Assembly: GCA_016210375.1 (NCBI GenBank)
Contig: JACQUH010000067.1
Location: forward strand, 911 to 24,910
Source: Chloroflexota bacterium
Lineage (GTDB): Bacteria; Chloroflexota; Dehalococcoidia; Lucifugimonadales; JACPCL1
Reading direction: 5' to 3'
DNA: 24,000 nt
In this document: positions 2,737 through 15,808 of the stretch, piece by piece
Layout: each line of letters opens with the position of its first letter
Position numbering within the stretch: the stretch's first letter is position 1
The notes under the pieces: generated by a model
What the model saw: only the letters and a program-made list of their open reading frames with translations
Database searches by the model: none
What the model was told of the DNA's origin: nothing
Position numbers and translations under genes: made by a program

Positions 2737-4407
2737 ATGGCATTCGTAAACAAGTGGCAACACCTCTCCTCCCGCGCGGCCAGCATTGCCAATACTAACC
2801 CCGTTGCCTTCTTCTACCTTTTCCGCTGGCTAACCTGGCTCCTGGCAGTAGCCATCGTCTTCACCCGTTCTGCCCCTTACGTAAACCTTAGATACGAGCC
2901 TGGGCTGCTGATGTACACTGCCTTCCAGCTAGCACTTGGACTTCTGTACGCAACTTCCCTCCGCTCACGGCTGAACCCAACGCCCGATGGGATTGGCCAG
3001 GAGCGTCCCTCCATAGACCCCCTGGTAGTTGGCGTAGCCGATATGATAGGCAGCCTCGTAATCCTCTTCTTCAGCGGCGGTCTGGGCACACCCTTCTTTC
3101 ACCTTGTTGTGACAAGCCTCCTCGTGCCCTGCTTCCTGTTGCCCACCCGGCGAGGCCTGGCCGTGGCTTTCCTATTTGGCGCGTGCTATGTGGTGGCAGT
3201 GTTCATGGCGGGGGAACTCTTGGGCGGGGCCGTTGGCCTCGGCCACGCCAGCTTCATTACCCAGGTGACCCGCGACGTCGCCTCAGTGCTGTTCATTGGG
3301 GGCGCCGTCGTGTATCTCGGCCATCTGTTCCGTACCCTTCAGGCTGAAAGGCGACGCACGAAGCAAGCCCTGGACGAGACCGAAATGCTATTCACCCTGA
3401 CCCAAGACCTGGTCCGCGGAGGCACAGAGATGGAGCCTCTGCTGATGCGCCTTGCCCAGGTAATGCGACGCACAGGGATCTTTGACCGGTGGGCGCTGTT
3501 CTTGGCGGCCTCTGACGGCAAGCTGGAGCTGGCTGCATCTACGGTTGGCATTGAAGAGGTCAACATGGTAGTGGTAGAGGAGACGATGAGGAAGGGCCGC
3601 ACGGCTACTGGCCCGGGGGCTACGGCAGGTCAGTGGCAGACAACAGTGCCTTTGAAAGTGGGCGAGGAAACGCTGGGAGTCATGGTGGCTGGCAACAGCG
3701 CCAGCAAGGCCACCAACGAGCTATCCCCACTGGCCGAGGCTGTGGCCGGTCAAATTGCGATTGGCCTCCAGAACGCAATCCTTGCCATTCAGAAGGCGGA
3801 CCTGGCAGCCCAAGAGGAGCGTAGTCGCATCGCCAGGGAGATTCATGACGGCGTCGCCCAGTCCATCTACATGCTGAGCCTTCACCTGGAGACATGTGCA
3901 GAACTGGCCTCCCAGGGCCGAAGCGATTTGCCTCAGCGGTTGGGCGGTCTGGTGAACCTCTCCAAGCAAGCGTTGCTGGAGGTGCGTCACTACATCTTTG
4001 ACTTGAAGCCTTACCTGGAGGGCGAACAGAGCGTGGCATCCATGCTAGCGAGCCAGGTTGGTGAGTTCACCAAGGTGTCGGGCGTGCCCGCGTCATTTGA
4101 GGTGAAAGGCGAGCCCCGTCCGCTGTCCATTCCCGCGGCTACCTGTTTGTACCGCGTGACTCAGGAGGCCTTGGCCAACGTCTTCCGCCATGCAAGGGCA
4201 TCGCAGGTGCGGGTGACGTTGGATTTCCTGCAAAGCGAAGCTCGTCTGACAGTGGCCGACAATGGCATCGGGCTTGACCTCACGAAAGCTGCGATGGGAA
4301 ACGGGCTAGGAAACATGCGACACCGAACCCAGGTATTGGGTGGGGATTTCCAGATTAGTGCCACCCCTGGGCAGGGAACAGGAATTAGTATTCATCTGCC
4401 CTGCTGA
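2737..4407 (+). CDS. Membrane sensor histidine kinase (N-terminal TM helices, GAF-like domain, HisKA_3 dimerisation/phosphoacceptor, HATPase_c)
   Basis: 556-aa ORF starting at ATG. H-box EERSRIAREIHDGVAQSIYMLSLHLE. ATPase motifs DNGIGL and GNGLGNMRHRTQVLGGDFQISATPGQGTGISIHLP. Hydrophobic N-terminal third. The middle region is GAF-like (VPLKVGEETLGVMVAGN). Confidence 0.9.
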   Translation: MAFVNKWQHLSSRAASIANTNPVAFFYLFRWLTWLLAVAIVFTRSAPYVNLRYEPGLLMYTAFQLALGLLYATSLRSRLNPTPDGIGQERPSIDPLVVGVADMIGSLVILFFSGGLGTPFFHLVVTSLLVPCFLLPTRRGLAVAFLFGACYVVAVFMAGELLGGAVGLGHASFITQVTRDVASVLFIGGAVVYLGHLFRTLQAERRRTKQALDETEMLFTLTQDLVRGGTEMEPLLMRLAQVMRRTGIFDRWALFLAASDGKLELAASTVGIEEVNMVVVEETMRKGRTATGPGATAGQWQTTVPLKVGEETLGVMVAGNSASKATNELSPLAEAVAGQIAIGLQNAILAIQKADLAAQEERSRIAREIHDGVAQSIYMLSLHLETCAELASQGRSDLPQRLGGLVNLSKQALLEVRHYIFDLKPYLEGEQSVASMLASQVGEFTKVSGVPASFEVKGEPRPLSIPAATCLYRVTQEALANVFRHARASQVRVTLDFLQSEARLTVADNGIGLDLTKAAMGNGLGNMRHRTQVLGGDFQISATPGQGTGISIHLPC

Positions 4408-4443
4408 GCCCAGTCTCGCGGCACAAGGCAATGGGAGGTTGAC

Positions 4444-5103
4444 ATGGCACGAACCAGAGTAATGGTCGTTGACGACCACGAGGTGGTACGGACGGGACTT
4501 GAGGCAATCCTGGGGGCTGAGGAGGACCTTGAGGTGATGGCTGAAGCCGGGACGGTCAACGAGGCCGTGCAGAAGGCCTCGCTCTTCGCCCCAGAGGTTA
4601 TCCTGATGGACGTGCGCCTGGGCGAGGGCAGCGGTATTGAAGCCTGTCGCGCTATTAAGAGCGAACGGCCAGCAACCCAAGTGCTCATGCTTACCTCTTT
4701 TGGCGACGAAGAGGCGGTGATGTCATCCATAATGGCGGGGGCGTCTGGGTATCTGCTCAAGAACGTTGGTAGGGCAGATCTGATACGCGCCATCAGAGCC
4801 GTAGCCAGGGGCCAGAACCTCCTGGACCCAGCCGTCACCAAACGGGTGATGGAACGCCTGACGCGCCTGGCAAACAAGGAAGAGGCGCAGGCACTGCAAG
4901 CCGTCTCCGCAAGGGAGAAGGACGTGCTGGTGCTGGTGGCCCAGGGGCTCACCAACAAGGAGATTGCTGCCAGATTGGTCATCAGCGAGAACACGGCCCG
5001 CAACCACGTGAGCCAATTGCTGGAAAAGCTGGGCCTCGCTAGACGCAGCGAAGCCGCCGCCTTCGCCGCTGAGCACGGCTTGCTGAGAAAAGAGCGACCT
5101 TAG
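4444..5103 (+). CDS. NarL/LuxR-family DNA-binding response regulator
   Basis: 219 aa. Receiver domain RVMVVDDHEVVRTGL ... ILMDVRLGEGSG. C-terminal LuxR HTH LSAREKDVLVLVAQGLTNKEIAARLVISENTARNHVSQLLEKLG. SD-like GGGAGG lies 5 nt upstream of the ATG, which is 36 nt after the kinase stop. Confidence 0.93.
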   Translation: MARTRVMVVDDHEVVRTGLEAILGAEEDLEVMAEAGTVNEAVQKASLFAPEVILMDVRLGEGSGIEACRAIKSERPATQVLMLTSFGDEEAVMSSIMAGASGYLLKNVGRADLIRAIRAVARGQNLLDPAVTKRVMERLTRLANKEEAQALQAVSAREKDVLVLVAQGLTNKEIAARLVISENTARNHVSQLLEKLGLARRSEAAAFAAEHGLLRKERP

Positions 5104-5265
5104 TCTACGTGTGGCGGCGGGGGTCTACCTCTCCCTAACGTTTTCGCCGCGCATCTGTACTACCAGAAATGGTACCGACCAACCAGCCGTATAGGGTACA
5201 TTCGTTCCTGGGGAGGGCCTCTCCCCTACTTTATCATGGCCTCACTGAACACACAGGAGGGGGCC

Positions 5266-5814
5266 GTGGAACAAGCGATAGCGGTACGGCGGCCTTCTTA
5301 CAGTAACATCAGCATGATTGCCACGGCTGCCGCGGCGGCGTTGGCCGTAGGAGCCGACCCATTCCTCTTTCGGCGGTTCGCCGACATTGACCCAGCGGTA
5401 GTCTCCACTCTGGGCAATCCATCGGTGTTCCTGGTCAACGTAATCGGCAGCTTGACACTGTTTCTGCCGATGCCCGGCCTGGCGGTGGTCTTCGCCGGCG
5501 GCAGCGCGCTGAATCCATTTGTAGTGGCGATTGTGGCAGCGCCAGGCATGGCCCTGGGCATGGTGGCGTGCTACCTATTGGGGGTATCTGGGTCGCCCCT
5601 GATCCAGAACCTGACGGCAAGCCAAGGTAACGTGGCGTCAAAGGTGGTAAGCAAGGTGCACACGTGGTTCCAGAGGTACGGCGTGTGGGCAGGGGCAATA
5701 CGGATGCCCCTATGGAAGTTCGCGGTGGGAACATTCCCGGGCAAAGTGGCGCAAACATCTGTGGTGGCCCTGGCGGGCACATATCTGGCGCTCGCTGTCC
5801 GGCTCGTGGCGTAA
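5266..5814 (+). CDS. TVP38/TMEM64 (DedA-superfamily, VTT-domain-like) integral membrane protein
   Basis: The motif region LFLPMPGLAVVFAGGSALNPFVVAIVAAPGMALGMVACYLLG resembles the VTT re-entrant segment, and the protein is hydrophobic throughout. The ORF is open from ATG 5236. However, GTG 5266 has AGGAGG (5255-5260) at 5-nt spacing while ATG 5236 has no SD, so the start is uncertain. The second half looks shorter than typical family members. Confidence 0.6.
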   Translation: MEQAIAVRRPSYSNISMIATAAAAALAVGADPFLFRRFADIDPAVVSTLGNPSVFLVNVIGSLTLFLPMPGLAVVFAGGSALNPFVVAIVAAPGMALGMVACYLLGVSGSPLIQNLTASQGNVASKVVSKVHTWFQRYGVWAGAIRMPLWKFAVGTFPGKVAQTSVVALAGTYLALAVRLVA

Positions 5815-5876
5815 CAGTAGTTTGTCCCCCAGCGCCATCTCTGGCATAGTGCTGTCGGTTTTGGGAGAGCAGAAGC

Positions 5877-8800
5877 ATGGCAGGCAAAGGAATAACGTTG
5901 CTGCGACTGGCTCTGATGGACTTTTCACGCAACAATTGCCCCTATGTGGCTGCTGGCATCGCCTTCTGGGCCTTGTTCTCCCTGTTTCCACTGGCCCTAG
6001 CGGCCATCTCTATCATGGCCTACCTGAACCCTGGGCCAGAAAAACAAGGCTGGATCCTGCAAGGCATCGTACAGGTGATACCTGTGTCTAGAGAATACCT
6101 GGCCCAGATCATTGAGGACGTTTCCCAGGCGAGGGGGACCCTGGGAGTGATAGCAGCCCTGGGCCTCATCTGGTCGGGCACCGCCGTCTTCTCCTCTGTG
6201 CGCAAGGGCGTCAACCACGCATGGCACATCGGCAAGCCGCCCTATTTTCTGCTGGAACGCGCCACAGATATGGTCATGCTCCTTGGGGTAGCAGTCCTGG
6301 CATTCAACATGGTTGCCTTCACCACCAACCTGCTGGGCCTCTCCACGATGGCCCAGGCCCCTAACTGGATAGGAGGTGGGCTCACAGGCAAAGTGTTCCT
6401 GGAGCTTGGTGCGGTGGCGATGACTTTTGGAGTGTTCTTGCTGCTCTACCGGTTCTTGCCCAACACCCATGTTGTATGGAAAGACGTTTGGCTTGGGGCA
6501 GCGGTGGGCGCAGTGCTTTCTCAAAGTATCAGGATCGGCTTCACGTGGTTTGTTGTGCATTTCGGCAGCTTCAACCTTGTGTATGGCGTCCTGGGTTCTC
6601 TAATGGCAGCGATGGTATGGGCCTATCTGACCTCCATTGCCATCATGTGGGGTGCGCAGGTGTGTTTTATCTACAGCCGGCTCTACGGTAGCCAGCAAGA
6701 CCTGGGCATTCCACCAGACCTCCAAGAGGCAACTATCGTCATTGTTCCTGACAGGAACGTAGGCGGCTTGCCAGGCGTGTTATTCACCTTGGGAAGCTGG
6801 CTCTTTCCAGCAAAGAAGAGACGGGGGATGCCGTCAAAAGCTGATGGGAGGCAAGCAATGGCAGACACGTTGGTGCAGTTCCTGCAAGAGGCCTCGGACA
6901 AGTTCGGCTCAAGGCCAGCCCTCTTCTTCAAACCTGCCTTTCGCTACAGGCAATGGAGCTACCGGCAACTGTGGGAGGAGTCCGGCAAGGTGGCAGCCCT
7001 CCTCCAGCAGCGGGGACTTCAGAAGGGAGACCGCGCCATCCTGTGGGCCTACAACTGCCCTCAGTGGGTGCTGGCCTTCTTCGGCTGCTTGCGGGCCGGC
7101 GTCATTGCCGTACCCATTGACCTGCGCAGCGCCCCAGAGTTCGTGACCAAGGTTGTTGCCAAGACACGCCCCAAACTGGCCTTCGTCTCCCGTTTGACGC
7201 CGCCAATGGAGCAGCGCATGGAGATGGAGTGCATCAGCGTTGAGGAGCTAGAAGGGCTGTGCGAGCATCTTCCGGCTCTCCAGGATGTGCCAGTGGCCAA
7301 GGACGACCTGGCAGAAATCATGTTCACATCGGGCACAACCGGTGACCCCAAGGGCGTGATGATCAGCCACTGGAACCTGCTCTCCAACCTGGAAGCCGCC
7401 AGCCAGTACATTCCCTGCAAGCCCTCCTACCGCCTCCTGTCGGTCTTGCCCCTGAGCCATATGTTTGAACAGATGGGTTGTCTTCTCATGGCCCTGAGCA
7501 ATGGCGCCAGCGTCACCTATCCGGCCAGCCGGCAGCCCTCTGTGCTATTCCGCACCATGCGCGAGCGCCGAATCACTACCATGCTCTTGGTGCCCCTGGC
7601 CCTGGACTTGTTCATGAAGGGTATAGAGCGGGAGGTGGAGCGACAGGGCAAGGAGCGACTGTGGAACGCCCTGCTAACGATGGCAAAGCGCACGCCCTTC
7701 CATCTGCGAAGAGTGCTCTTTCGGCGCATCCACAAGCAGTTCGGTGGCAAGCTGGAATTGGTTATATCAGGTGGCGCGGCCCTTGACCCGGAGCTTGGGG
7801 CCAAGTGGCAGCTACTAGGTGTCAAGGTCATCCAGGGCTACGGCGCAACCGAGGCGTCTCCCGTCATAAGCTGCCACAAGATGAGCGACCCCAGGTTTGA
7901 CTCCGTGGGGCTGCCGCTGCCTGGCGTAGACGTGAAGATTCAGGATGATGGCGAGATACTGGTGCGCGGCCCCAATGTCACCCGGGGCTACTGGGAAGCA
8001 CCCGAACAGTCCGCTGCTGCCTTCAAAGACGGCTGGTACAAGACTGGCGACCTGGGTTACTTTGACAAGGAAGGCTACCTGCACATCCAAGGCCGCAAGA
8101 AGGACATGATTGTCCTTGCGGACGGCCAGAACGTGTTCCCTGAGGACGTAGAGGCTGTGCTGTTGAAGCACACGGCAGTAACCGACGCCATCGTGGTGGG
8201 TCTCTCCAAGGGCAGTGACACCGAGGTTCACGCTGTCTTCATCCTCAAGGAGCCTTCCGAGGCGCCAGCGATCGTTACCTGGGCCAACAGCCGACTAGAG
8301 GAGCGTCAGCGCATACGGGGATGGTCACGGTGGCCAGGGGAGGACTTCCCGCGTACCCACACGCTGAAGGTCAAGAAGGGCGTGGTGCTGGACACCCTGC
8401 GAGGGGTTGCCCCTAGCAGCCCGGCGGCAATCTCTGGTACCCCCTCCACTAGCAGCACTCCCCGCGCCCTCACTCGGATTGTTGCTGACGTGGCCGGTGT
8501 AGCCCTGGGACAGGTAGCCGCCGAGAGGACCCTGGGCGGTGACCTGAACCTGGACTCCCTGAAGCGGGTGGAGCTATTGTCGGTGGTGGAAGAGGAGCTG
8601 GGGGCCTTTGTGGACGAAACCACCGTTGGACCAGATACAACCGTCGGGCAGCTCCAGGCGATGATAGGGGAGCAGGCAAACGCCCACACGGTGCAGAGCT
8701 TCCCTGGCTGGGGCATGAGCTGGTGGTGCCAGCCCTTGCGTGGGACAATCCAACGCGCCTTCATCTTCCCCATGGGCTTATGGCTGTACCGGTTGCGTGT

Positions 8801-9332
8801 TAGTGGACAGGAGCATCTGGATGGCGTCAAAGGCCCAGTGCTCTTTGCCGCGAACCACCACCTGGCGCTGGACAACGGCCTCATCATCAAGGCGATGCCC
8901 AACCCTTGGCGGCGCAGGCTGGCCATTGCCGCCGCCGCCGACCTTTGGGGCAACCCTGTTAACGCAGTGATGAATCCCCTTCTGGGCAATGGCTTCCCCT
9001 TCGCCAAGGATGGCCCCGTGCGCGCTAGCCTGGATAACCTGGGACGGATACTGGACAAGGGCTGGTCCGTGCTTCTTTACCCAGAGGGGGAACTGACCGT
9101 CGGTGGGCCTATGAAGCCCTTCAAGAGCGGTACTGGCCTCATTGGCGTGGAAGGAGGCATTCCTGTGGTGCCGCTGCACCTTCTCATCCATAGCCCCGGC
9201 AAGCCGGAGCCATTTCCCTTCCTACGGAGAGGGCACGTAGAGATACGCTTCGGCAAGCCCATTTTCTTCCAACCCGGGGCATCGTACCTGGAAGCTACCG
9301 CCGCTATTGAGGGGGCAGTGCACACTCTGTAG
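5877..9332 (+). CDS. Four-domain fusion protein: YihY/BrkB-type membrane domain + AMP-dependent acyl ligase + phosphopantetheine carrier domain + PlsC/LPLAT-type acyltransferase
   Basis: 1151-aa ORF.
- aa 1-~270: YihY/BrkB-like polytopic domain (CPYVAAGIAFWALFSLFPLALAAISI).
- aa ~328-800: adenylate-forming ligase motifs [12 protein letters not shown] (7323-7358), GYGATE, YKTGDLG, GRKKDMIV, PRTHTLKVKK.
- aa ~860-935: carrier domain GGDLNLDSLKRVELLSVVEEELG, with the Ser codon at 8556-8558.
- aa ~960-1151: acyltransferase with HX4D motif NHHLALD (8853-8873) and YPEGE.
SD-like GGAGAG lies 7 nt upstream of the ATG. Confidence 0.9.
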   Translation: MAGKGITLLRLALMDFSRNNCPYVAAGIAFWALFSLFPLALAAISIMAYLNPGPEKQGWILQGIVQVIPVSREYLAQIIEDVSQARGTLGVIAALGLIWSGTAVFSSVRKGVNHAWHIGKPPYFLLERATDMVMLLGVAVLAFNMVAFTTNLLGLSTMAQAPNWIGGGLTGKVFLELGAVAMTFGVFLLLYRFLPNTHVVWKDVWLGAAVGAVLSQSIRIGFTWFVVHFGSFNLVYGVLGSLMAAMVWAYLTSIAIMWGAQVCFIYSRLYGSQQDLGIPPDLQEATIVIVPDRNVGGLPGVLFTLGSWLFPAKKRRGMPSKADGRQAMADTLVQFLQEASDKFGSRPALFFKPAFRYRQWSYRQLWEESGKVAALLQQRGLQKGDRAILWAYNCPQWVLAFFGCLRAGVIAVPIDLRSAPEFVTKVVAKTRPKLAFVSRLTPPMEQRMEMECISVEELEGLCEHLPALQDVPVAKDDLAEIMFTSGTTGDPKGVMISHWNLLSNLEAASQYIPCKPSYRLLSVLPLSHMFEQMGCLLMALSNGASVTYPASRQPSVLFRTMRERRITTMLLVPLALDLFMKGIEREVERQGKERLWNALLTMAKRTPFHLRRVLFRRIHKQFGGKLELVISGGAALDPELGAKWQLLGVKVIQGYGATEASPVISCHKMSDPRFDSVGLPLPGVDVKIQDDGEILVRGPNVTRGYWEAPEQSAAAFKDGWYKTGDLGYFDKEGYLHIQGRKKDMIVLADGQNVFPEDVEAVLLKHTAVTDAIVVGLSKGSDTEVHAVFILKEPSEAPAIVTWANSRLEERQRIRGWSRWPGEDFPRTHTLKVKKGVVLDTLRGVAPSSPAAISGTPSTSSTPRALTRIVADVAGVALGQVAAERTLGGDLNLDSLKRVELLSVVEEELGAFVDETTVGPDTTVGQLQAMIGEQANAHTVQSFPGWGMSWWCQPLRGTIQRAFIFPMGLWLYRLRVSGQEHLDGVKGPVLFAANHHLALDNGLIIKAMPNPWRRRLAIAAAADLWGNPVNAVMNPLLGNGFPFAKDGPVRASLDNLGRILDKGWSVLLYPEGELTVGGPMKPFKSGTGLIGVEGGIPVVPLHLLIHSPGKPEPFPFLRRGHVEIRFGKPIFFQPGASYLEATAAIEGAVHTL

Positions 9333-9364
9333 ATATCGTAGAAATCTCAAGCAGGAGGTCATCC

Positions 9365-10513
9365 ATGCGTCTCTGGAAGCGCATCCTCATCGCTGTTCTA
9401 GCGGTTGTTGTGCTGGCCGCGGCTGGCGGCATTGCCGGCGGTGGCTGGTATCTCTCCGACATCCTCAAGAAAGACGCCCTGATGCCGAACCACAAGCCCT
9501 CCGACCTGGACATGCGGGTGATTGCAGTGGGAAACGGTCAAATCACTCTTGGGGTAACGCCCTCCACCAGCAACACCGCGCCTTGGAAGTACGACGGCGT
9601 GTGGGGTGTACGGTGGGACAGCGGCTATGGCCAGGCGGGGGCCATCAGCCAGCTTACTGAGCAGCAGGTGGTACGGCCCTTCACGGCCTTCAACGGCGAG
9701 TTGCACCCAGACGACATGGTGCGCCTGGAAGGGACAGCTTTCCCCAGCGACCCATATCAGGTTTTCGCCATACCCTTCCAGGAGGTGCGGTACACATCGC
9801 CCCTGGGGGAGTTCAAAGCGTGGTATGTGGAGGGCAAGGGCAGCACCTGGGTCATTACCGTGCATGGCCGCAACGCGCCTCTCAGGGAGGGGCTGCGCAT
9901 TCTGCCTACCATTGTGGGAATGGGGTATCCCGTCCTCATGATAGAGTACCGCAACGACGATGGCGCGCCGCCGAACCCGGACGGCCTTCTACGCTACGGC
10001 CAAGCGGAGTGGCAGGACATGGAAGGGGCCGTCGGCTATGCCCTCCAGCAAGGCGCTCACGATGTGGTGCTGGTTGGCTTCAGAATGGGCGGCGCAATCG
10101 TTGCCAACTTCCTCTACCAGTCCGCCCAAGCGGACAAAGTGCGAGGGGTCATCCTGGATGCGCCCATGATCAACTTCAACAAGACCATTGACCTGGGCGT
10201 GCAGCAACGGGGCTACCCTACGCTAGTCGCGGGCGTTGCCAAGGGGTTCTCTCAGCTCCGCTTTGGTGTGCCGTGGCGCAAGCTGGACTACCTGAAGCAC
10301 ACCGACCGCTTGAAGGCCCCCATCCTGCTCTTTCACGGTGACGCCGACCCAACTGTGCCCATTGCCACTAGCGACGCCCTGGCCAAGGCCCGTCCGGACA
10401 TCGTGCGGTACGTGCGCATGGAAGGAGCGCTGCACGTTGGCTCGTGGAACCGAGACCCGACAGCATACGAAGCCGCCGTGCAAACGTTCCTCCAGGACAT
10501 TGGCAAGGGCTAG
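9365..10513 (+). CDS. Membrane-anchored alpha/beta-fold hydrolase-like protein with nucleophile Ser replaced by Arg
   Basis: 382 aa. AGGAGG lies 7 nt upstream of the ATG. N-terminal TM helix ILIAVLAVVVLAAAGGIAGGGWYL. Fold motifs VITVHGRN, nucleophile elbow VLVGFRMGGA (expected G-x-S-x-G; codon AGA at 10082-10084), LLFHGDADPTVP and GALHVG. Confidence 0.8.
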   Translation: MRLWKRILIAVLAVVVLAAAGGIAGGGWYLSDILKKDALMPNHKPSDLDMRVIAVGNGQITLGVTPSTSNTAPWKYDGVWGVRWDSGYGQAGAISQLTEQQVVRPFTAFNGELHPDDMVRLEGTAFPSDPYQVFAIPFQEVRYTSPLGEFKAWYVEGKGSTWVITVHGRNAPLREGLRILPTIVGMGYPVLMIEYRNDDGAPPNPDGLLRYGQAEWQDMEGAVGYALQQGAHDVVLVGFRMGGAIVANFLYQSAQADKVRGVILDAPMINFNKTIDLGVQQRGYPTLVAGVAKGFSQLRFGVPWRKLDYLKHTDRLKAPILLFHGDADPTVPIATSDALAKARPDIVRYVRMEGALHVGSWNRDPTAYEAAVQTFLQDIGKG

Positions 10514-10866
10514 GGCCGCACCAGCGCCACAACCACCGCCACAACGTAGTTACCGTGGTGGCTGATGCTCAGATCAATGCTCAAGATATGGGATGCGTCG
10601 TACTCCGAAGCAAAGGCCAGGTAGGGCTTGCCTTCAGGCGTATGGCGCACCTCTACCACGTGCCAATTGCCCTTAGGTAGAGCCAGGGCCTTGAATACCG
10701 CTTCTTTGGCGGCACAGACGGCGGCAAGGCGCTCCGAGCTTGCCCCCTGCGCCTCTGAGGGATGAAACAGCCGCCGTCGGAATGCATCGCCTCCCGCCGT
10801 TAGGGAGCGTTGAAACTCCTCCAAGCTCACCAGGTCAATCCCTGTACGCACCTCTAGGTTTTCCAC
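10510..10866 (-). CDS. acpS: Holo-[acyl-carrier-protein] synthase (AcpS-type 4'-phosphopantetheinyl transferase)
   Basis: 118 aa from GTG 10866, with GGAGAGG 7 nt upstream. The motifs TGIDLVSLEEF ... RRLFHPSE ... LAAVCAAKEAVFKAL ... W..VEV ... GKPYL ... LSISHHGNYVVAVVV match the short AcpS pattern. Its stop overlaps the stop of the convergent hydrolase gene within CTAG at 10510-10513. Confidence 0.85.
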   Translation of the reverse strand: MENLEVRTGIDLVSLEEFQRSLTAGGDAFRRRLFHPSEAQGASSERLAAVCAAKEAVFKALALPKGNWHVVEVRHTPEGKPYLAFASEYDASHILSIDLSISHHGNYVVAVVVALVRP

Positions 10867-11074: not shown

Positions 11075-12000
11075 ATGAACACGCTTGTGGACCTGCTGAC
11101 AGACGCTCATAGCCGTTTTGGAGGCCGGACGGCCCTGGCGATGCGCCAGGGCTATCACACTCAGCGGTGGAGCTACCGTCGCCTGAAGGAGACATCGGGC
11201 CAAGCAACGGCGCGTCTTCAAGGACAGGCAGTGCGGACGGGCGACCGCATCATGATTTGGGCGCAAAACTCGCCCCAAGTGGTAGCCGTTTTCTTCGGAT
11301 GCCTCCGGGCGGGGCCATTGTTGTACCTCTGGACGTGCGTAGCACACGCGAGTTTGCAGCAAAGGTGGTAGACAGCACCAAACCCAAGCTAGCCTTCGTG
11401 TCGTCAGCCACGGCGGCGGAAACCAGGGGCTTGGGCTTGCCCCAAGTGGCGCTGGAAGAACTGCAAGCCTTCCTGGTTGATGCTGCACCCTTGGTTCAGG
11501 AAGTGAGTCTATTTTCTAGCGACATCGCTGAAATCATCTTCACCTCTGGCACAACCGGCGACCTGGGAGCAACAGACCAGGACGGCTTCCTCTACTCCCG
11601 GGGGAGGAAGAAGGACCTGATTGTGCTGGCCAGCGGTATGAACGTGTACCCGGAGGACATTGAAGCGCGCCTACGACGTCATCCGGCAGTGGCCGTCGCG
11701 GTGGTAGTTGGCCTGCCCAAGAGCGAGCAGGACGTGGAGGTGCGCCGCCTTGCTCTTGAATAACAAGGGGGCAATAGCCAAAACGGTCGTGGAGGAGGTC
11801 AACAGGGCGCTGGCCGACCACCAGCGGGTGCAAGGCTTGACGGTACGGCCGGACGAAGACTTCCCACGCACCAATACGCTGAAGGTCAAGAAGCAGGAGG
11901 TCATCCAACGCCTTATGCAGCTTCGTGCAGGGCAAGGTACTTCAGTGCCACCCGTTGATGCAATGCCTGAAGCCACGCCACTGTATCGCCTAGCGGCGCA
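11075..12000 (+). pseudogene. Decayed paralog of the acyl-ligase module of the 5877..9332 gene (two frameshifts, large internal deletion, carrier and acyltransferase parts missing)
   Basis: Three ORF-track fragments in three frames align colinearly with the intact ligase.
- [25 protein letters not shown]...VFFGCLRAG aligns with MADTLVQFLQEASDKFGSRPALFFKP...AFFGCLRAG.
- After a frameshift at G-run 11311-11314, [30 protein letters not shown] follows.
- FTSGTTGD is joined directly to [21 protein letters not shown] at about 11553-11567.
- A second frameshift lies near 11740-11745, with a stop at 11761-11763.
- Then comes ...DHQRVQGLTVRPDEDFPRTNTLKVKKQEVIQRL.
- Homology fades at about 12000.
GGGGAGG lies 6 nt upstream of ATG 11075. 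Confidence 0.8.
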
Positions 12001-12460
12001 GGTGGCCCCACGCCGCCGAAGGGGGCGTGATGCGCCGACAGCTTCCCGAAGGTCAAAGCACCTTAACCGCCTGGCTGTGGCGTTCCGTCAGGTGCCAGGA
12101 GTGCTGCGAGACGAGGTACGTCTATGCCGACTTGTGTTTCGTGCTAAGGTGGCGAAGTCCGTCGGGAAAGTGGATTTTTCGCTCTAAGCGCATCAAAAAG
12201 TCCGATAAAGTCCTTCCAAGAAGCTACCGTATCTTAAACGTCAAACCCGAAATCCGATGTACCTGTCCAGGCCGGAGCAGGCCGTCCAGGGCATGGCTCT
12301 TCTCTCGTCGTCCCTCCGAAGGGCTGTCGGCTCCGCCGCCTTGAAAATCCAGCCAGTAGCACCAAAGAGTGGATGCAAAAGACGGGCCTTCGGGGGGCGA
12401 CACGGGGGGATCGCTCTGCGATAATGGTAGGGTATTCATCGGAAAGAGGAAGGAGAAACG

Positions 12461-12817
12461 ATGGCAACCGAAGCGCCCCTGCGGGGGTTCTGTGCGATGG
12501 TCCATGAGGCGCTGCCGCCCCGAAACAGTGTTAAGTCGCAGGTGATCGCGACAGTCTGGAATCTTTCGGGCACGGATGGTGCGGTGAGCGCCGCCCAGGT
12601 GCATCGCTATCTACCACACCTGACCAGAGGTCAGGTGTCGGGCTGCCTCTCCCGTTGCCAGGCCGACGGGTGCCTTAACTCAAAGCGTGTCAAGATTCCA
12701 CCGGGCAACTTCGGGTTCGTATTCCGGCTGTCGGGGTATGGCCGTTCGTGGCTCACCTGGGCCATAGCGACGGGCTTGCTCACCCAGCAGGCCCCAGGGG
12801 AGGGAGAATCGCAATGA
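12461..12817 (+). CDS. Hypothetical small protein, possibly winged-helix DNA-binding
   Basis: 118-aa ORF with a strong SD (AGGAAGGAG) about 6 nt upstream of the ATG. Promoter-like GCGACA-17 nt-GATAAT lies upstream. The segment VSAAQVHRYLPHLTRGQVSGCLSRCQADGCL is reminiscent of a wHTH recognition region. I recognise no family with certainty. Confidence 0.45.
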   Translation: MATEAPLRGFCAMVHEALPPRNSVKSQVIATVWNLSGTDGAVSAAQVHRYLPHLTRGQVSGCLSRCQADGCLNSKRVKIPPGNFGFVFRLSGYGRSWLTWAIATGLLTQQAPGEGESQ

Positions 12818-13375
12818 CGCGCTTAGTGAAGCAAACCTGTAGCTGGCCCAAGTCGTCCATGACCCGAATAGACGGCTCGCCTATGCCCCCGCCGCGCATC
12901 TACCGTAGACCCAGGCCCAGCGTTCCCGCGCCTCCACCCGTGCCCCTGGCCCGTGCCCAGGCCCCTGAGCTAGGCCCCCGGCCGTGCAGCCTAGGGCGCG
13001 GGTAATTCGGCGGCAACGGCTTGCAGAACCGTCCCCGAACGTGCAGGAGGTCGTAGAGCAGGCTGACGTGGAAGAGCAGCTTATGACCGTTCAGGAGCCG
13101 CCCCAGGAGGCCGATGCGTCCCTGGCCGTATCTGCACTTGACGATAATGACGCCTCGCACAGCCCGCCTGACAAGGCGGCCCAGGCTGGGGGCCTCCCGC
13201 CTGGCCGGGAGCTTGCCCGTAGCTGGGGCATAGGAGGATGTTTGCTAACGGTTTGCTAACCAACTCAGCACGATTTCTTGGCACAGGACGGCACCACAGA
13301 TACAAAATGGGGGGTGTGGCCCTGGACGGTTATAGAACAGAACGTATCTGGCAGCATAGAACAACACATACGGCT

Positions 13376-13422
13376 AAGGTTTCCTAAACCGTTGGTCGGC
13401 GGTTCAAATCCGCCCAGGGGTA
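13376..13422 (+). other. tRNA-Arg(CCU)-like 3' fragment (anticodon arm to acceptor 3' strand); not an intact tRNA gene
   Basis: Canonical geometry is present:
- Anticodon arm AAGGT-TTCCTAA-ACCGT (13376-13392; one A/G mismatch; U33, anticodon CCT, A37).
- 5-nt variable loop TGGTC.
- T-arm GGCGG-TTCAAAT-CCGCC (13398-13414).
- Acceptor 3' strand CAGGGGT plus discriminator A.
The upstream 34 nt do not supply a pairing acceptor 5' strand (4/7) or a D-loop with GG. Confidence 0.5.
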
Positions 13423-13458
13423 CTCCCCAACCAGTTCCTTTGCAGGCGATAACCCCCG

Positions 13459-14340
13459 TCAGCTTCCGCCGGGAAGGCCAAGCCCCCCCAGAAAGGCGAG
13501 GACGGCCTCTCGGAAGGCCTGCGGCGCATCGGAGGGGACGGCGTGCCCCGCGCCGGGGATCTCGGACAACCTGCCATCGGGGATGGCCGCCACTACTCGT
13601 TGGGCTGTCGCCAGGCTTACCAGGGGGCTGTTTCCCCCGTGAACAAACAGAACCGGGCACCGCAGGGAGGGGAGCATGTCCCACAGCCCTTCCATCTGCT
13701 GGCGGAAAGCCTCTGACCCGCCAATCACCCACCACAGCTCCGGGTCCAGGCGAAAGACCCACATGCCCGCCCAGTTCTGCCTCATGCCGTGCTGGAAACG
13801 CCACTCTGTGCGCCTTTCGTTGTCGTCGGGGTAGACCGTGCGCAGATACGCCTTGGCCTCCTCGGGCGTGGCGAAGCCCAGAGGCCGGGTGAATACAGGG
13901 AGCGCTGTCTGGCGGACCGGCTCCACCAGGGTTCCCGGCCCGCCGTCCACCAGCACCAGGCGAGCTATCATGCCTGGGTACCGGGCCGCCAGGTACATAG
14001 CGATCATGGCCCCGAGGGAGTGGCCCACCAGGTGGAAGGAGCGCAGGTTGAGGTGGCGCGCCAGGGCCGTTACGTCGTCGGCGAAGAGGTCCAGAGTGTA
14101 GCCGTCCGGGGCATGACCGCTCTCGCCGTGCCCGCGCAGGTCCAAAGCTATCACCCGGAATCGGGGGGAGGCCTCCCTGGCGAAGTCGTCCCACGCATGG
14201 GCGTTGCTGGTGAGGCCGTGGAGGAGGACAAGGTGCTCCCGCGGGCCTTCGCCCCAGTCCAGGTAGTGCAGGCGCAGGCCGTCCCGCTCAAAATGGAGGG
14301 ACATTGGCCTGCCTTGGTAGGCGGTGACAGATTCAGTCAC
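13459..14340 (-). CDS. Alpha/beta hydrolase (intact catalytic motifs)
   Basis: 293 aa from GTG 14340, with GAGGAG 8 nt upstream. An alternative ATG is at 14304. Motifs LVLLHGLTSNAHAWDDF, nucleophile elbow VGHSLGAMIA and GAGHAVPSD. Confidence 0.88.
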   Translation of the reverse strand: MTESVTAYQGRPMSLHFERDGLRLHYLDWGEGPREHLVLLHGLTSNAHAWDDFAREASPRFRVIALDLRGHGESGHAPDGYTLDLFADDVTALARHLNLRSFHLVGHSLGAMIAMYLAARYPGMIARLVLVDGGPGTLVEPVRQTALPVFTRPLGFATPEEAKAYLRTVYPDDNERRTEWRFQHGMRQNWAGMWVFRLDPELWWVIGGSEAFRQQMEGLWDMLPSLRCPVLFVHGGNSPLVSLATAQRVVAAIPDGRLSEIPGAGHAVPSDAPQAFREAVLAFLGGLGLPGGS

Positions 14341-14424
14341 GTTGTCTTCTCCTCTGGCGTTGTCGGCTATTATGCCACAGCCAACACCGCCAAACTTACC
14401 ACTGCGAGGATGCAGAGGTGTAAA

Positions 14425-14529
14425 GAATCAGTGTGATTCGGCTTTGCCGAATCACACTGATTCAAGCGTATCTGCTCCCCCTTCCCCCATGGGGAAGGGG
14501 GAGCCAGAGGGGGTTAGGTTATTTGGTCC
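14425..14529 (-). repeat. Composite hairpin repeat, family A, copy 1 (inverted orientation)
   Basis: - Hairpin 2: 14425-14463, GAATCAGTGTGATTCGGC-TTT-GCCGAATCACACTGATTC (18-bp perfect stem).
- Hairpin 1: 14475-14503, CTCCCCCTTCCCC-CAT-GGGGAAGGGGGAG.
- Conserved flank CCAGAGGGGGTTAGGT, the reverse complement of ACCTAACCCCCTCTGG. Confidence 0.85.
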
Positions 14530-14610
14530 AGGATCATAAGGGTGCGGCATGTGGGGACATTGGGATGCCACAGCCTTTAGGTCTTTGACTCATTAGAAAG
14601 ACATCCCTAT

Positions 14611-14768
14611 GTCATGCTGAGGGAGTACCGACTGGTCGGGACGACCGAAGCATCTAAGGCGTTCCGCCGATTATCTGCGAACTTCCGCTTGGGAACCAGA
14701 CGCTCACCAATGGTGCGCCTTAGATTCTTCGCTGCGTCCCGATTGCATCGGGACTTGCTCAGAATGAC
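14611..14768. repeat. Inverted-repeat element, family B (~158 bp, ~51-bp imperfect arms; MITE/REP-like)
   Basis: - Left arm: GTCATGCTGAGGGAGTACCGACTGGTCGGGACGACCGAAGCATCTAAGGCG (14611-14661).
- Reverse complement of the right arm (14716-14768): GTCATTCTGAGCAAGTCCCGATGCAATCGGGACGCAGCGAAGAATCTAAGGCG.
- Each arm contains its own small hairpin. Confidence 0.75.
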
Positions 14769-14968
14769 CTGTTGAAAGTCGCTGTATTTAGTCAATGACC
14801 ATGAGGCCGTGGTGATTGATACTGCTTCCACAGGCGCTTGGAAAAACGGAAGACCCCGCCTTGGCATACCCCCCGTTGACCGCCGTGAGGCCAGGATGCT
14901 ACAATTCTTTCAACCAAGGTTCGCAATCTGAGTTCTACGTTCCTGCCTACGCACGAAAGGAGTGTGCT

Positions 14969-15361
14969 GTGATAACCGTATCTGAGTTGGCCAGCGAGAA
15001 GCTGAGGGGCATTATGGACGAGGAGGGCCAGCCCGAGTCTGCGCTACGAATCATCGTCGTCCCCAGCCCTCACGGTGGAGCGCCGTACATGCTCTCCCTG
15101 GAGAGGGAAACCAAACAGGACGATTCGGTGATTGACGCCTACGGCGTGAGGATCCTGGTGGACTCGGACAGCCTGCCTCTCCTGGAAGGGTCGGAGATTG
15201 ACTACGTGGAAGGGCTGATGCGGAGCGGGTTTGTCATTTCCAACCCCAACTTCATGGCGGAGGGTGGAGGATGCGCCTGTGGTGGGCAGTGCGGCTGCGG
15301 CGGCCATGGGGCGACGGACGAGGCGGAGCACGGTGAGGGATGCGCGTGCGGCGGGCATTAA
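14969..15361 (+). CDS. HesB/IscA-like (A-type Fe-S carrier fold) protein with atypical ligand set and Cys/Gly/His-rich tail
   Basis: GTG 14969 is preceded by AAAGGAG at 5-nt spacing; the ORF-track start at 14816 lies inside repeat-rich sequence. ITVSELASEKLRGIM...LRIIVVPSPHGGAPYMLSL...GFVISNPNF aligns with the IscA/HesB pattern. The C-terminus is GGGCACGGQCGCGGHGATDEAEHGEGCACGGH. Confidence 0.75.
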   Translation: MITVSELASEKLRGIMDEEGQPESALRIIVVPSPHGGAPYMLSLERETKQDDSVIDAYGVRILVDSDSLPLLEGSEIDYVEGLMRSGFVISNPNFMAEGGGCACGGQCGCGGHGATDEAEHGEGCACGGH

Positions 15362-15399
15362 CGGGCGAGCAGCAGGGTAGCTTTCTCAGGACCCATGGT

Positions 15400-15435
15400 G
15401 AAACCGCCCCCTGAAAGGGGGCGGTTTCGTTTTCC
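15400..15435 (+). terminator. Rho-independent terminator downstream of the HesB-like gene
   Basis: GAAACCGCCCCC-TGAAA-GGGGGCGGTTTC (12-bp perfect stem, 15400-15428) followed by GTTTTCC. It sits 39 nt after the stop. Confidence 0.75.
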
Positions 15436-15520
15436 AGCGATATGGTCATCAGTTGGTTGACTATTTCAGAACTCCCTTTGGGGCTGCCCCCTGGTGACCA
15501 TTTCCAAAATAGTCTGCCAA

Positions 15521-15662
15521 TTGGGTTTCTACCTAACCCCCTCTGGCTCCCCCTTCCCCCAGGGGAAGGGGGAGAAGATTGGCTTGAAACGGTGTGATGC
15601 GGCAAAGCCGCATCACACCGTTTCCTCAAATCAACGTCCCCTTCTCCGCTTCGGTGAGGGAG
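15521..15662 (+). repeat. Composite hairpin repeat, family A, copy 2
   Basis: - Flank: TTGGGTTTCTACCTAACCCCCTCTGG.
- Hairpin 1: 15547-15574.
- Hairpin 2: 15586-15624, GAAACGGTGTGATGCGGC-AAA-GCCGCATCACACCGTTTC.
- Extra module CTCCGCTTCGGTGAGGGAG, resembling the first module of copy 4. Confidence 0.85.
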
Positions 15663-15743
15663 ATGCTTTTACAAAAGCTATTTGATCCAAGACCATCAGG
15701 ATGGGATAGAAAGCCACCTTAAGGTTGTTTCTGAGGAGACTTA

Positions 15744-15784
15744 ACACAGCAAGCGGAAGGCAAGTAGCGTTCCGCTTGCTGTGT
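15744..15784 (-). terminator. Strong hairpin 25 nt downstream of the PHP gene stop (possible terminator; no U-tract)
   Basis: ACACAGCAAGCGGAA-11 nt-TTCCGCTTGCTGTGT, a 15-bp perfect stem. Neither strand has a T-run after it, so the terminator function is uncertain. Confidence 0.4.
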
Positions 15785-15808
15785 CATATACCGGCAAAGA
15801 GGCGCGGG

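Follow-up and report, generated by a model that had tools for sequence, protein, structure and literature searches.

A YihY-fused ligase-carrier-PlsC enzyme in a Chloroflexota contig, part of a possible degenerate copy of a lipid acylation cassette

The window (the whole 24,000-nucleotide stretch of Chloroflexota DNA analyzed) encodes a fusion protein of 1151 aa with the order YihY–ligase–carrier–PlsC. The proposal that a membrane-lipid acylation cassette of Chloroflexota survives in the window as a derived and in part degenerate copy is, in our judgment, evenly balanced, and comparative evidence from synteny amongst diverged Chloroflexota supports the existence of a real module. In its unfused, conserved form, this cassette provides a testable clue to the function of YihY proteins. 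The open reading frames of the first-pass annotation were borne out in position and strand (Table 1; the fusion spans 5877-9332, + strand), as were the inter-gene gaps of 36, 132, 62 and 32 nt and the overlap of the hydrolase and AcpS stops, both within the palindrome CTAG (10510-10513). All of its domain calls held in Pfam searches, with the VTT/DedA match falling under the cut-off.

Table 1. Features of the locus, with window positions, strand and basis of assignment.
Feature	Position	Strand	Basis or remark
Sensor histidine kinase	2737..4407	+	~5-6 TM helices, weak GAF, HisKA_3, HATPase_c (Pfam, NCBIfam, hydropathy scan)
NarL/GerE-type response regulator	4444..5103	+	Response_reg 86.8 bits, GerE 59.5 bits (Pfam)
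GTAC-N11-GTAC palindrome (GTACTACCAGAAATGGTAC)	5157..5175	.	Regulator-DedA gap; candidate regulator binding site
GC-rich hairpin, then T-rich tract	5210..5226	+	Just 5' of the DedA-like start; consensus scan
DedA/VTT-like membrane protein	5236..5814	+	VTT_dom 28.7 bits, cut-off 33.9
YihY/BrkB domain, fusion ORF aa 1-317	5877..6827	+	PF03631, TIGR00765
Junction, 10-codon linker MPSKADGRQA	6828..6857	+	Former intergenic sequence
Ligase-carrier-PlsC part, fusion aa 328-1151	6858..9332	+	ANL adenylation, carrier and PlsC domains (Pfam)
Membrane-anchored α/β-fold hydrolase	9365..10513	+	Abhydrolase_1 44.0 bits (Pfam); AF2 model
AcpS-type 4'-phosphopantetheinyl transferase, 118 aa	10510..10866	-	PF01648, TIGR00556; convergent with hydrolase
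Second ligase-carrier-PlsC paralogue, decayed remnant	11075..12043	+	tblastn fragments, weak AMP-binding match

Within the ligase-carrier-PlsC part, Pfam searches identified AMP-binding (276.5 bits, aa 337-706), PP-binding (24.0 bits, gathering cut-off 20.8, aa 864-926) and Acyltransferase (45.1 bits, gathering cut-off 23, aa 972-1100) domains. The carrier serine is Ser894 (codon TCC, 8556-8558) and the PlsC motif is H994-x4-D999 (H994 at 8856-8858, D999 at 8871-8873); these and all other catalytic motifs were unchanged across 37 diverse members of the family. Homologues of 781-860 aa number more than 1000, and the 150 best-scoring clusters at 50% identity have this architecture in common. The kinship to Aas claimed at first pass was confirmed for the PlsC and ligase domains by BLASTP with E. 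coli Aas (1e-33 and 8e-08). The best NCBIfam match of the PlsC part was PRK08633, the MFS(LplT)-Aas fusion family, although this match, like every match to an Aas-type NCBIfam model, was far under its cut-off. The nearest solved ANL structures were a mixture of feruloyl-, malonyl- and oxalyl-CoA ligases and also FadD13, so that a fatty acid is a likely, not an established, substrate. The core enzyme is ElbD-like and Aas-like, and its putative substrate is a lipid.

The YihY part of the fusion matched Virul_fac_BrkB (PF03631; 163.7 bits, gathering cut-off 33.7, aa 18-267) and TIGR00765 (101.3 bits vs cut-off 73.15), and aligned end to end with the stand-alone YihY genes of 316-318 aa in loci L001, L002 and L011. 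At the junction, CAA (6852-6854) occupies the position of the TGA stop of L001, and the fusion originated through loss of both this stop codon and the intervening MBL-hydrolase gene. A Shine-Dalgarno sequence, GGGAGG (6846-6851), is kept 6 nt ahead of the ancestral ligase ATG at 6858, so the ligase part may also be made separately. Neither the 120 closest homologues nor the 150 best representatives of clusters at 50% identity included another YihY fusion; among the homologues compared, it is a singleton limited to this contig and genome. The sole other apparent YihY fusion, P0168, comes from a contig of 2x coverage with a split MBL gene, and was set aside as a probable frameshift artefact. The fusion had previously been read as a functional hint for YihY; confined to one contig and produced by gene and stop loss, it makes a weak Rosetta-stone argument when taken alone.

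Relatives encode YihY separately from the ligase, in most cases with the gene of an MBL-fold hydrolase lying between the two. YihY-MBL-ligase or YihY-ligase adjacency was found in the window and in L001, L002, L011, L017, L018, L019, L053, L032 and L035, across which identity fell to 38% for YihY and 46% for the ligase; in L030 and L044 the neighborhood was rearranged. About half of the ligase loci (L003-5, L008-10, L012, L013, L054, L056) had no YihY gene within 10 kb, and some YihY genes of 50% identity had no ligase nearby (L023-25, L029). The steadiest ligase neighbor was the MBL hydrolase, for which an Aas-type scheme has no place. In L017, two inverted IS copies (1195 nt, 100% identical) enclose exactly DedA-YihY-MBL-ligase-hydrolase-AcpS, a bracketing by which the cassette behaves like a mobile accessory element. 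The synteny looked for in other genomes was found: unfused homologues share their surroundings with genes for YihY, a DedA-like protein, a hydrolase and AcpS.

The AcpS-type protein exceeded the cut-offs of both ACPS (PF01648; 45.6 bits, cut-off 25) and TIGR00556 (47.2 bits, cut-off 45.35), and its gene holds the same convergent position in L001, L002, L011, L017 and L019. Ligases only 32% identical also adjoin AcpS genes: a Woesebacteria (CPR) MAG carries an overlapping abhydrolase-abhydrolase-AcpS-CoA transferase-ligase array, and L056, from a different lineage, carries ligase-AcpS followed by a convergent CdsA gene. Together with the presence of AcpS inside the IS-bracketed unit of L017, these neighborhoods strengthened the earlier suggestion of a dedicated PPTase.

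The claim of a complete, self-contained system could not be upheld for the window copy. The DedA-like gene has lost 19 aa in frame between V150 and W151 (nt 5685/5686), at a site where WAAFLLAAxPNPFFDFAGL is kept in 4/4 aligned homologues. The hydrolase consists of a TM helix (2-39), a β domain (50-155) and a hydrolase fold (160-382), and its AF2 model (pLDDT 95) best matched the Pf2001 esterase in the PDB (5g59, E 5e-17). Its nucleophile position, serine in 119 of 120 family members, is occupied by Arg240 (AGA, 10082-10084), with Asp328 and His357 retained. The hydrolase of intact relatives is probably a membrane-anchored serine esterase facing outward, an orientation read solely from the basic residues of a short N-terminal tail. 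Missing from the window are the MBL-fold hydrolase gene and the methyltransferase gene that precedes the second ligase paralogue in relatives; that paralogue, intact in L002 and L011, has suffered a frameshift, an internal deletion of ~225 aa and loss of its carrier and PlsC parts. Besides the fusion, the same 9 kb has accumulated five lesions: loss of the MBL and methyltransferase genes, the deletion in the DedA-like gene, Ser240Arg in the hydrolase and decay of the second paralogue to a pseudogene. With a hydrolase lacking its nucleophile and an internally deleted DedA-like gene, the full system cannot run as written. No accelerated protein divergence was observed on the window lineage, indicating that selection acted on the core genes until recently.

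The sensor kinase scored 54.1 bits for HisKA_3 (gathering cut-off 24) and 42.6 bits for HATPase_c in Pfam, and a hydropathy scan showed no large loop between its TM helices. The closest NCBIfam relatives of the kinase and regulator were the envelope-stress pairs MadRS, LiaS and MctRS, and the best matches of the regulator were MadR, MctR and NarL, all under cut-off. Only L001, L002 and L011 have kinase orthologues (64-69% identical) at the corresponding position, and the two-component link proposed for the cassette is confined to four closely related MAGs, in which the pair would regulate the cassette. GTAC-N11-GTAC has 2 matches in the window vs 0.11 expected by chance and falls where the intergenic sequence is best conserved in alignment with L011, L001 and L002, making it a candidate binding site for the regulator. 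The adjacent hairpin is a possible terminator or attenuator separating the two-component genes from the enzyme genes; the number of hairpin/T-tract sites in the region was not above chance in the consensus scan.

The ancestral cassette may have had the order [DedA-like]–YihY–MBL-fold hydrolase–(ligase/carrier/PlsC)–[serine esterase]–[AcpS]; in the window clade, a HisKA_3/NarL pair lies ahead of it and a methyltransferase and second ligase paralogue behind. In the proposed mechanism, the ANL domain would adenylate a carboxylic acid (a long-chain fatty acid being the likeliest) and load the acyl group on the enzyme's own phosphopantetheine arm at Ser894, installed by the neighboring AcpS. At the cytoplasmic face, the PlsC domain (H994/D999) would then pass it to a membrane-lipid hydroxyl, such as that of a lysoglycerolipid. 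YihY would be the membrane partner, anchoring the enzyme and delivering or removing its lipid substrate; six TM helices and a cytoplasmic C-terminus, as predicted in E. coli, make a C-terminal fusion topologically possible. In this genome, MBL deletion and YihY stop loss generated the fusion, with the esterase, DedA-like protein, methyltransferase and second paralogue damaged or gone. Lysolipid re-acylation is suggested by analogy, and outward acyl export would fit the same parts. CPR bacteria are reported to lack the capacity to make membrane lipids and to be enriched in lysolipids (PMC7242380), which, with a ligase in a CPR genome, fits a salvage role.

The fusion could instead lack functional meaning, as a neutral lesion or a mistake in assembly or consensus calling within a relic cassette that is being lost. 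YihY and ligase would have become neighbors by deletion, and translation of the ligase would still start from a ribosome-binding site of its own. The singleton status of the fusion, the retained internal SD and ATG, the five further lesions and the artefact-like P0168 all favor this explanation, but the fused 3.4-kb ORF stays open with every catalytic motif intact, the kinase, regulator and AcpS look intact, and the lineage has no excess amino-acid divergence. It also leaves the conserved synteny elsewhere unexplained, and we consider it rather unlikely.

Outward acyl export, by analogy with DltABCD or FadD32-Pks13-MmpL3-Ag85, would use the same parts with flux opposite to repair or salvage. 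At the cytoplasmic face, the ligase-carrier-PlsC enzyme would attach the acyl group to a lipid-linked or polar carrier. Passage of the acylated carrier to the outer face would fall to YihY and/or the DedA-like protein, and transfer there of the acyl group onto an envelope polymer or lipid to the anchored α/β-fold protein; we find this reading as a whole unlikely. One N-terminal TM helix, a β domain and an α/β fold, as in the hydrolase, is a layout typical of ecto-enzymes, amongst them DltD and Ag85. The sub-threshold resemblance of the two-component genes to envelope-stress pairs, the mobility of the cassette and the methyltransferase and second ligase of relatives, suggestive of a more elaborate product, point the same way. 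Against this, the hydrolase orientation derives from the basic tail only, its best structural match is a plain carboxylesterase, the PlsC domain is nearest to Aas-type re-acylating enzymes, and a ligase in CPR bacteria without lipid synthesis better suits import or salvage (PMC7242380). A dedication to specialized lipid biosynthesis (ether lipids by an ElbD-type route, or some other acylated metabolite) in place of phospholipid remodeling appears quite improbable. The domain order matches that of the ACS-ACP-AT segment in ElbD (PMC9131029), Chloroflexota are amongst the possible ether-lipid producers with ElbD and/or Ger homologues (bioRxiv 10.64898/2026.06.23.733905), and the MBL hydrolase, methyltransferase and second paralogue of relatives would be superfluous for simple re-acylation. 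Nevertheless, the protein has no reductase domain, no reductase gene was present in any cassette examined, and the CdsA and AcpS neighbors in distant lineages belong to phospholipid metabolism.

The preferred reading, a membrane-lipid acylation cassette, can be compared with several known systems. The N-terminal 317 aa of the fusion resemble E. coli YihY and YhjD, passing Pfam and TIGR00765 cut-offs. The first-pass statement that YihY/BrkB proteins lack an established function stands for E. coli YihY, of unknown function and co-transcribed with dtd and the malonyl-ACP decarboxylase gene madA (PMC13555641). For its paralogue YhjD, a lipid link has already been published, through LPS binding and a genetic connection to lipid IVA transport (PMC3219608). 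For YihY/BrkB, a CysZ/AAC-like transporter fold has been put forward in a preprint (10.64898/2026.03.31.715626). Unlike the window protein, neither YihY nor YhjD of E. coli is linked to an acyltransferase.

In DltABCD and FadD32-Pks13-MmpL3-Ag85, a ligase feeds a carrier, a membrane step and an anchored extracytoplasmic hydrolase-fold transferase; the carrier is primed by an AcpS-type enzyme, and envelope-stress two-component systems exert control. The window resembles these routes in logic only (ligase, carrier, membrane step, anchored hydrolase fold, AcpS, two-component pair); their membrane proteins, MBOAT in DltABCD and RND in the mycolate route, are non-homologous to YihY and DedA, its transfer enzyme is instead PlsC-type, and an extracellular acceptor would here be purely hypothetical.

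E. coli LplT-Aas and the PRK08633/PRK06814 families share with the window a PlsC-type acyltransferase and an acyl-activating ANL ligase, as well as an adjacent or fused membrane transporter gene (lplT and aas overlap in E. coli) and carrier-dependent acyl transfer, these last two being putative for the window. The window enzyme differs from Aas in its reversed domain order and built-in carrier in place of free ACP, and its membrane partner is YihY (± the DedA-like protein) vs the MFS protein LplT. An MFS gene adjoining one ligase homologue was considered as an LplT counterpart and proved not LplT-like.

By architecture, the closest characterized relative is ElbD, not Aas. M. xanthus ElbD likewise joins an ACS-like ligase, an acyl carrier and an AGPAT/PlsC-like acyltransferase, a likeness by domain order. 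Its ACS and ACP activities were demonstrated in vitro, where acyltransferase activity was undetected, and ElbD-like homologues lacking the FAR1 (reductase) domain were recorded in other phyla, not studied (PMC9131029). The window enzyme differs from ElbD in having neither the N-terminal reductase domain nor elbB, elbC or elbE neighbors; in the window and its relatives, the partners are instead YihY, DedA-like, MBL, esterase and AcpS genes.

The object of interest at this locus is the conserved gene cassette, rather than the protein fusion found within it. The six ORFs described by the first-pass annotation were recovered at their positions, with gaps of 36, 132, 62 and 32 nt, and the stop codons of the hydrolase and AcpS genes do overlap in a common CTAG palindrome. 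Profile searches backed each of its domain calls, the VTT/DedA match being weak. By profile and hydropathy, the kinase is a HisKA_3/HATPase protein with a multi-TM N-terminus, and the REC-GerE regulator adjoins it across the 36-nt gap, the arrangement of a NarL-class pair. In the 1151-aa fusion, Pfam placed YihY/BrkB at residues 18-267, AMP-binding at 337-706 followed by its C-terminal subdomain, PP-binding at 864-926 and PlsC at 972-1100 (these last three parts are called the ligase for short).

Positions of features in the window and in comparison loci from other genomes (L numbers)
Feature	Sequence	Position	Strand	Description
G+C-rich region	window	~430-2700	both	up to 73% G+C; long ORFs, including one of 516 aa with an internal protein repeat
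GTAC-N11-GTAC palindrome	window	5157-5175		most conserved part of the gap between regulator and enzyme genes
GC-rich hairpin	window	5210-5226		just before the DedA-like start
DedA-like gene	window	5236-5814	+	57-nt in-frame deletion at 5685/5686
Fusion	window	5877-9332	+	ancestral ligase ATG at 6858
α/β hydrolase	window	9365-10513	+	Arg240 codon (AGA) at 10082-10084
AcpS	window	10510-10866	-	CTAG shared with hydrolase at 10510-10513
Second-paralogue pseudogene	window	11075-12043	+	frameshift near 11311; residues ~163-388 deleted, none left after ~558
Other α/β hydrolase	window	13459-14340	-	Abhydrolase_1, 116 bits; weak thioesterase match
RNase Y	window	17851-19377		
Second HisKA_3 kinase	window	21832-24000	-	7TM N-terminal region and GAF; runs off the window end
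Band_7/flotillin genes	L002	2222-4362, 16247-17641		flank the cassette
Band_7/flotillin gene region	L018	20672-22505		near the cassette
IS3-type copies	L017	6018-7212, 14204-15398	inverted	1195 nt each, 100% identical
PlsC-like fragment	L052	7386-7829		uncalled; 42% identity over 92 aa
P0168	L053	6335-8025		YihY plus half an MBL domain
Woesebacteria gene cluster	L054/L055	5057-10544		Candidatus Woesebacteria (CPR) MAG; overlapping genes: abhydrolase-abhydrolase-AcpS-family III CoA transferase-ligase; ligase identity ~32-33%
Ligase-AcpS cluster	L056	8001-11926		another lineage; ligase (~32% identity), then AcpS homologue not annotated as such, convergent CdsA

Synteny of the ligase with PPTase, DedA and hydrolase genes, for which a neighbourhood check had been proposed, does exist in other genomes. 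The most conserved partner is a gene for an MBL-fold hydrolase (about 237 aa, HxHxDH), which the first-pass annotation missed because it is absent from the window. It lies between YihY and the ligase in L011, L017, L018, L019, L053, L032 and L035; L003, L008/9, L012 and L013 have MBL-ligase pairs and no YihY, with ligase identity down to 44%, and L037 holds a YihY-MBL pair without the ligase. Among 16 non-redundant ligase-anchored loci, the MBL gene is immediately upstream of the ligase in nine, an AcpS gene is present in eight, and YihY is found within eight, the other half of the ligase loci being without it. The hydrolase family of the window directly follows the ligase in six of the 16, with a convergent AcpS gene next in every case.

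The extent of the unit is delimited in L017, where an inverted pair of identical IS3-type copies encloses precisely DedA-YihY-MBL-ligase-hydrolase-AcpS, a stretch of 6991 nt; the arrangement resembles a composite transposon. The genes flanking the cassette differ in every genome, and a tblastx comparison of the window flanks (1-2736 and 12044-16000) with all loci gave no match. Band_7/flotillin genes were seen beside the cassette in two loci (see the table) and none in the window. At the level of gene neighbourhoods, the comparative evidence supports a real functional module.

AcpS genes also accompany two far more divergent ligases, one of them from a CPR bacterium. The AcpS beside the Woesebacteria ligase would be hard to explain otherwise than as its dedicated activator. 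CPR bacteria are reported to be without lipid synthesis and enriched in lysolipids (PMC7242380). The tri-domain ligase-carrier-PlsC family is large, with at least 150 clusters (50% identity) of the same architecture, and since it reaches these bacteria, which are unable to make their own lipids, it may be a general route to membranes built from scavenged fatty acids. In the window, AcpS (118 aa, on the opposite strand) scored above the cut-offs of PF01648 (45.6 bits vs 25) and TIGR00556 (47.2 vs 45.35) and below those of the equivalog models; its recurrent adjacency to the ligase supports a putative role in modifying the carrier of the neighbouring enzyme.

The covalent fusion of YihY to the ligase had been put forward as a concrete functional hint. 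It turned out to be weak evidence, as the fusion is a singleton of recent origin and the informative signal is the conserved neighbourhood. When 5.8 billion sequences were searched by word index, the YihY N-terminus was seen, among the best 120 of 1020 homologues with E ≤ 1e-10, only in the window's own sequence, which is annotated as a 'YihY family inner membrane protein' from a Chloroflexi MAG; the remaining 119 (781-860 aa) consist of the ligase-carrier-PlsC part alone. HMMER, run exhaustively on 1.84 billion cluster representatives, likewise gave no match to the YihY part among the best 150, all of which align with query residues ~330-1150 at 33-63% identity. Two candidate fusions were rejected. 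The long outlier P0475, at 1157 aa, has AMP-binding domains in tandem and is no YihY fusion. P0168, the one other apparent YihY fusion in the databases, comes from a 2x-coverage long-read contig on which the MBL gene is split; since the remainder of its MBL domain is encoded by the next ORF, a frameshift artefact is the most likely cause.

The origin of the fusion can be read from its closest relatives (L001, L002 and L011; 70-76% identity), in which YihY is a separate gene of 316-318 aa upstream of the ligase. The window protein tracks these separate YihY proteins up to G317 and continues through ten codons of former spacer, with CAA at the position of the L001 TGA stop, until the frame joins the ancestral ligase ATG. 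GGGAGG is still present 6 nt upstream of this ATG, so the ligase may still be translated independently.

Other parts of the window copy are also damaged. The nucleophile elbow of the hydrolase reads G-F-R-M-G, with Arg240 at a position where Ser (AGC/AGT, one base away) is found in five syntenic orthologues and in 119 of 120 family members. Asp328 and His357 are kept, and the protein is without a complete Ser-Asp-His triad with GxSxG; the Ser240Arg change should abolish serine-hydrolase activity. In the DedA-like gene, the deletion lies between two 'WA' microhomologies and took out 19 conserved residues (WAAFLLAAxPNPFFDFAGL), which accounts for the sub-threshold Pfam VTT score (28.7 bits, cut-off 33.9; profile positions 2-73 of 123 only); intact homologues in L001 and L017 carry PF09335. 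Downstream of AcpS, relatives have a Methyltransf_20 gene and then a second ligase-carrier-PlsC paralogue, of 846 aa. The Methyltransf_20 gene, from a Pfam family for which our literature search found no papers, stands before the paralogue in L001, L002 and L011; it is absent from the window, where the paralogue itself survives as a pseudogene. The MBL gene has been lost from the window, L001 and L002, and the YihY stop codon from the window only.

Long-term decay or relaxed selection was considered as the source of these lesions and rejected. The window YihY, ligase, hydrolase and AcpS have diverged from the outgroups L017-L019 no more than their counterparts in the sister genomes, and since the identities are equal, the lesions look recent. 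No stop codon interrupts the 3.4-kb fused ORF.

The hydrolase (382 aa) has a single TM helix at its N-terminus, then a β domain and a fold like that of esterases (AF2 pLDDT 95), with esterase 5g59, P. furiosus Pf2001, as its best fold match (Foldseek E 5e-17). Sequence and fold searches for its specificity returned generic esterases, C-C hydrolases and S9 peptidases and nothing lipase-specific; for the MBL protein, they returned only generic B3-lactamase, glyoxalase II and lactonase-like matches. The hydrolase family is large (655 matches), mostly in unrelated contexts; together with the ligase loci that have no YihY, this weighs against a strict link. Just upstream of one 'stand-alone' homologue, in L052, lies a PlsC-like fragment that may be the remnant of a former ligase neighbour.

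Amongst the loci compared, the two-component pair was confined to the window, L001, L002 and L011, and these four share a conserved block, including the GTAC-N11-GTAC palindrome, in the gap before the enzyme genes. This palindrome may be a binding site for the regulator, and the hairpin that follows may be an attenuator. Scans found no sigma-70-like promoters, terminator-like hairpins only at chance level, no Rfam families, no tRNAs and no tandem repeats upstream.

Outside the conserved block, the G+C-rich region gave no Pfam or NCBIfam match and did not resemble the flanks of related loci, and a further α/β hydrolase lies 2.6 kb beyond AcpS. RNase Y, a glucose/sorbosone dehydrogenase, a PHP-domain protein, an Fe-S assembly protein and a second HisKA_3 kinase are also present, and these outlying genes look like ordinary housekeeping context.

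Among bacterial membrane proteins, YihY/BrkB is one of the large and widely conserved families that have no known function. The window domain scored above curated cut-offs (PF03631, 163.7 bits vs 33.7; TIGR00765, 101.3 vs 73.15), with 5-6 hydropathy segments and long helices in an AF2 model of moderate quality (pLDDT 70). A Foldseek search of the PDB with this model gave no fold match (none with E < 0.03; TM at most 0.23). E. coli YihY is predicted to have six TM helices, both termini in the cytoplasm and a fold like CysZ/AAC (preprint 10.64898/2026.03.31.715626), a topology in which a C-terminal fusion to a cytoplasmic enzyme is feasible. The first-pass statement that the family has no established function agrees with the 2026 literature (PMC13555641; 10.64898/2026.03.31.715626). 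Any claim that it has no lipid connection needs softening: LPS binding, co-purification with LptB and a genetic link to lipid IVA transport have all been described for its paralogue YhjD (PMC3219608).

The core enzyme retains its catalytic residues. Across 37 diverse relatives there is no variation in the carrier serine, Ser894, in the P-loop, in the A10 lysine or in H994-x4-D999, and the PlsC domain (PF01553, 45.1 bits) has its HX4D motif. The reading we prefer, to which we give about an even chance, is an ElbD-like or Aas-like pathway, reduced and partly broken in the window. AcpS would prime the in-cis carrier of the ligase-carrier-PlsC enzyme, the primed enzyme would acylate a membrane lipid, and YihY would act as its membrane partner. 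The lipid re-acylation system proposed by the first-pass annotation is partly supported, through the domain calls and the synteny of the cassette, whereas the fusion is weak evidence for it and the window copy is not the self-contained unit that had been described.

A different account would make the locus a relic and the fusion a neutral lesion or an error. It fits the hydrolase without its nucleophile serine, the internally deleted DedA-like protein and the pseudogene, and overlaps the preferred reading as regards this genome; the open fused ORF and the outgroup identities stand on the other side, and we regard it as rather unlikely. The general caution it carries is that a striking fusion in one metagenome-assembled genome can be a recent lesion within a decaying locus. 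An outward acyl-export route, Dlt-like or mycolate-like, would employ the same parts as acylation of a membrane lipid, and we judge it a little less probable still. Specialised-lipid synthesis is the most doubtful of these alternatives. The ligase substrate is probably a fatty acid, a grade kept below proof because the nearest solved structures include FadD13 and feruloyl-, malonyl- and oxalyl-CoA ligases.

The recurrent and partly mobile cassette ties YihY to an ACP-dependent acyltransferase, AcpS and lipid-type hydrolases, which makes for a concrete, testable hypothesis. We propose, tentatively and at long reach, that YihY/BrkB proteins may translocate lipids, lysolipids or acyl-lipids with carrier-dependent acyltransferases, and that the Chloroflexota DedA–YihY–MBL–(ligase-carrier-PlsC)–ecto-esterase–AcpS unit may be a mobile, self-sufficient transmembrane acyl-chain pathway, for salvage or export, non-homologous to LplT–Aas and functionally parallel to it. 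If true, this would open a very large family without known function to biochemistry for the first time.

Our literature search found no papers on this Chloroflexi enzyme family, and its nearest described counterparts are Aas and ElbD. The PlsC domain is homologous to the N-terminal domain of E. coli Aas (BLASTP E 8e-08) and the ANL ligase to its C-terminal half (26% identity over 497 columns, E 1e-33). The window enzyme, however, is ordered ligase-carrier-PlsC with an in-cis PP-binding domain, whereas Aas is PlsC-then-ligase and uses free ACP. All Aas equivalog cut-offs in NCBIfam were missed by a wide margin: the whole fusion protein scored 189 bits on PRK08633 (cut-off 1221), and the PlsC part alone 47 bits on PRK08633, the MFS(LplT)-Aas fusion family that is its best-scoring family, and 20 bits on PRK08043 (cut-off 886). 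In L004/L005 the ligase is followed by an MFS gene, which was considered as an LplT and gave generic efflux-type MFS matches only. FAAL-like ligases fused to lysophospholipid acyltransferases have been noted in passing (PMC8460268). Compared by architecture, the domain coordinates give the ACS-ACP-AGPAT order of M. xanthus ElbD in one polypeptide (PMC9131029), a paper that also mentions, without study, reductase-less ElbD-like homologues in other phyla. Unlike ElbD, the enzyme has no N-terminal FAR1-like fatty-acyl reductase and gave no reductase or NAD-binding match; where ElbD has its reductase, the window protein carries YihY and the homologues carry nothing.
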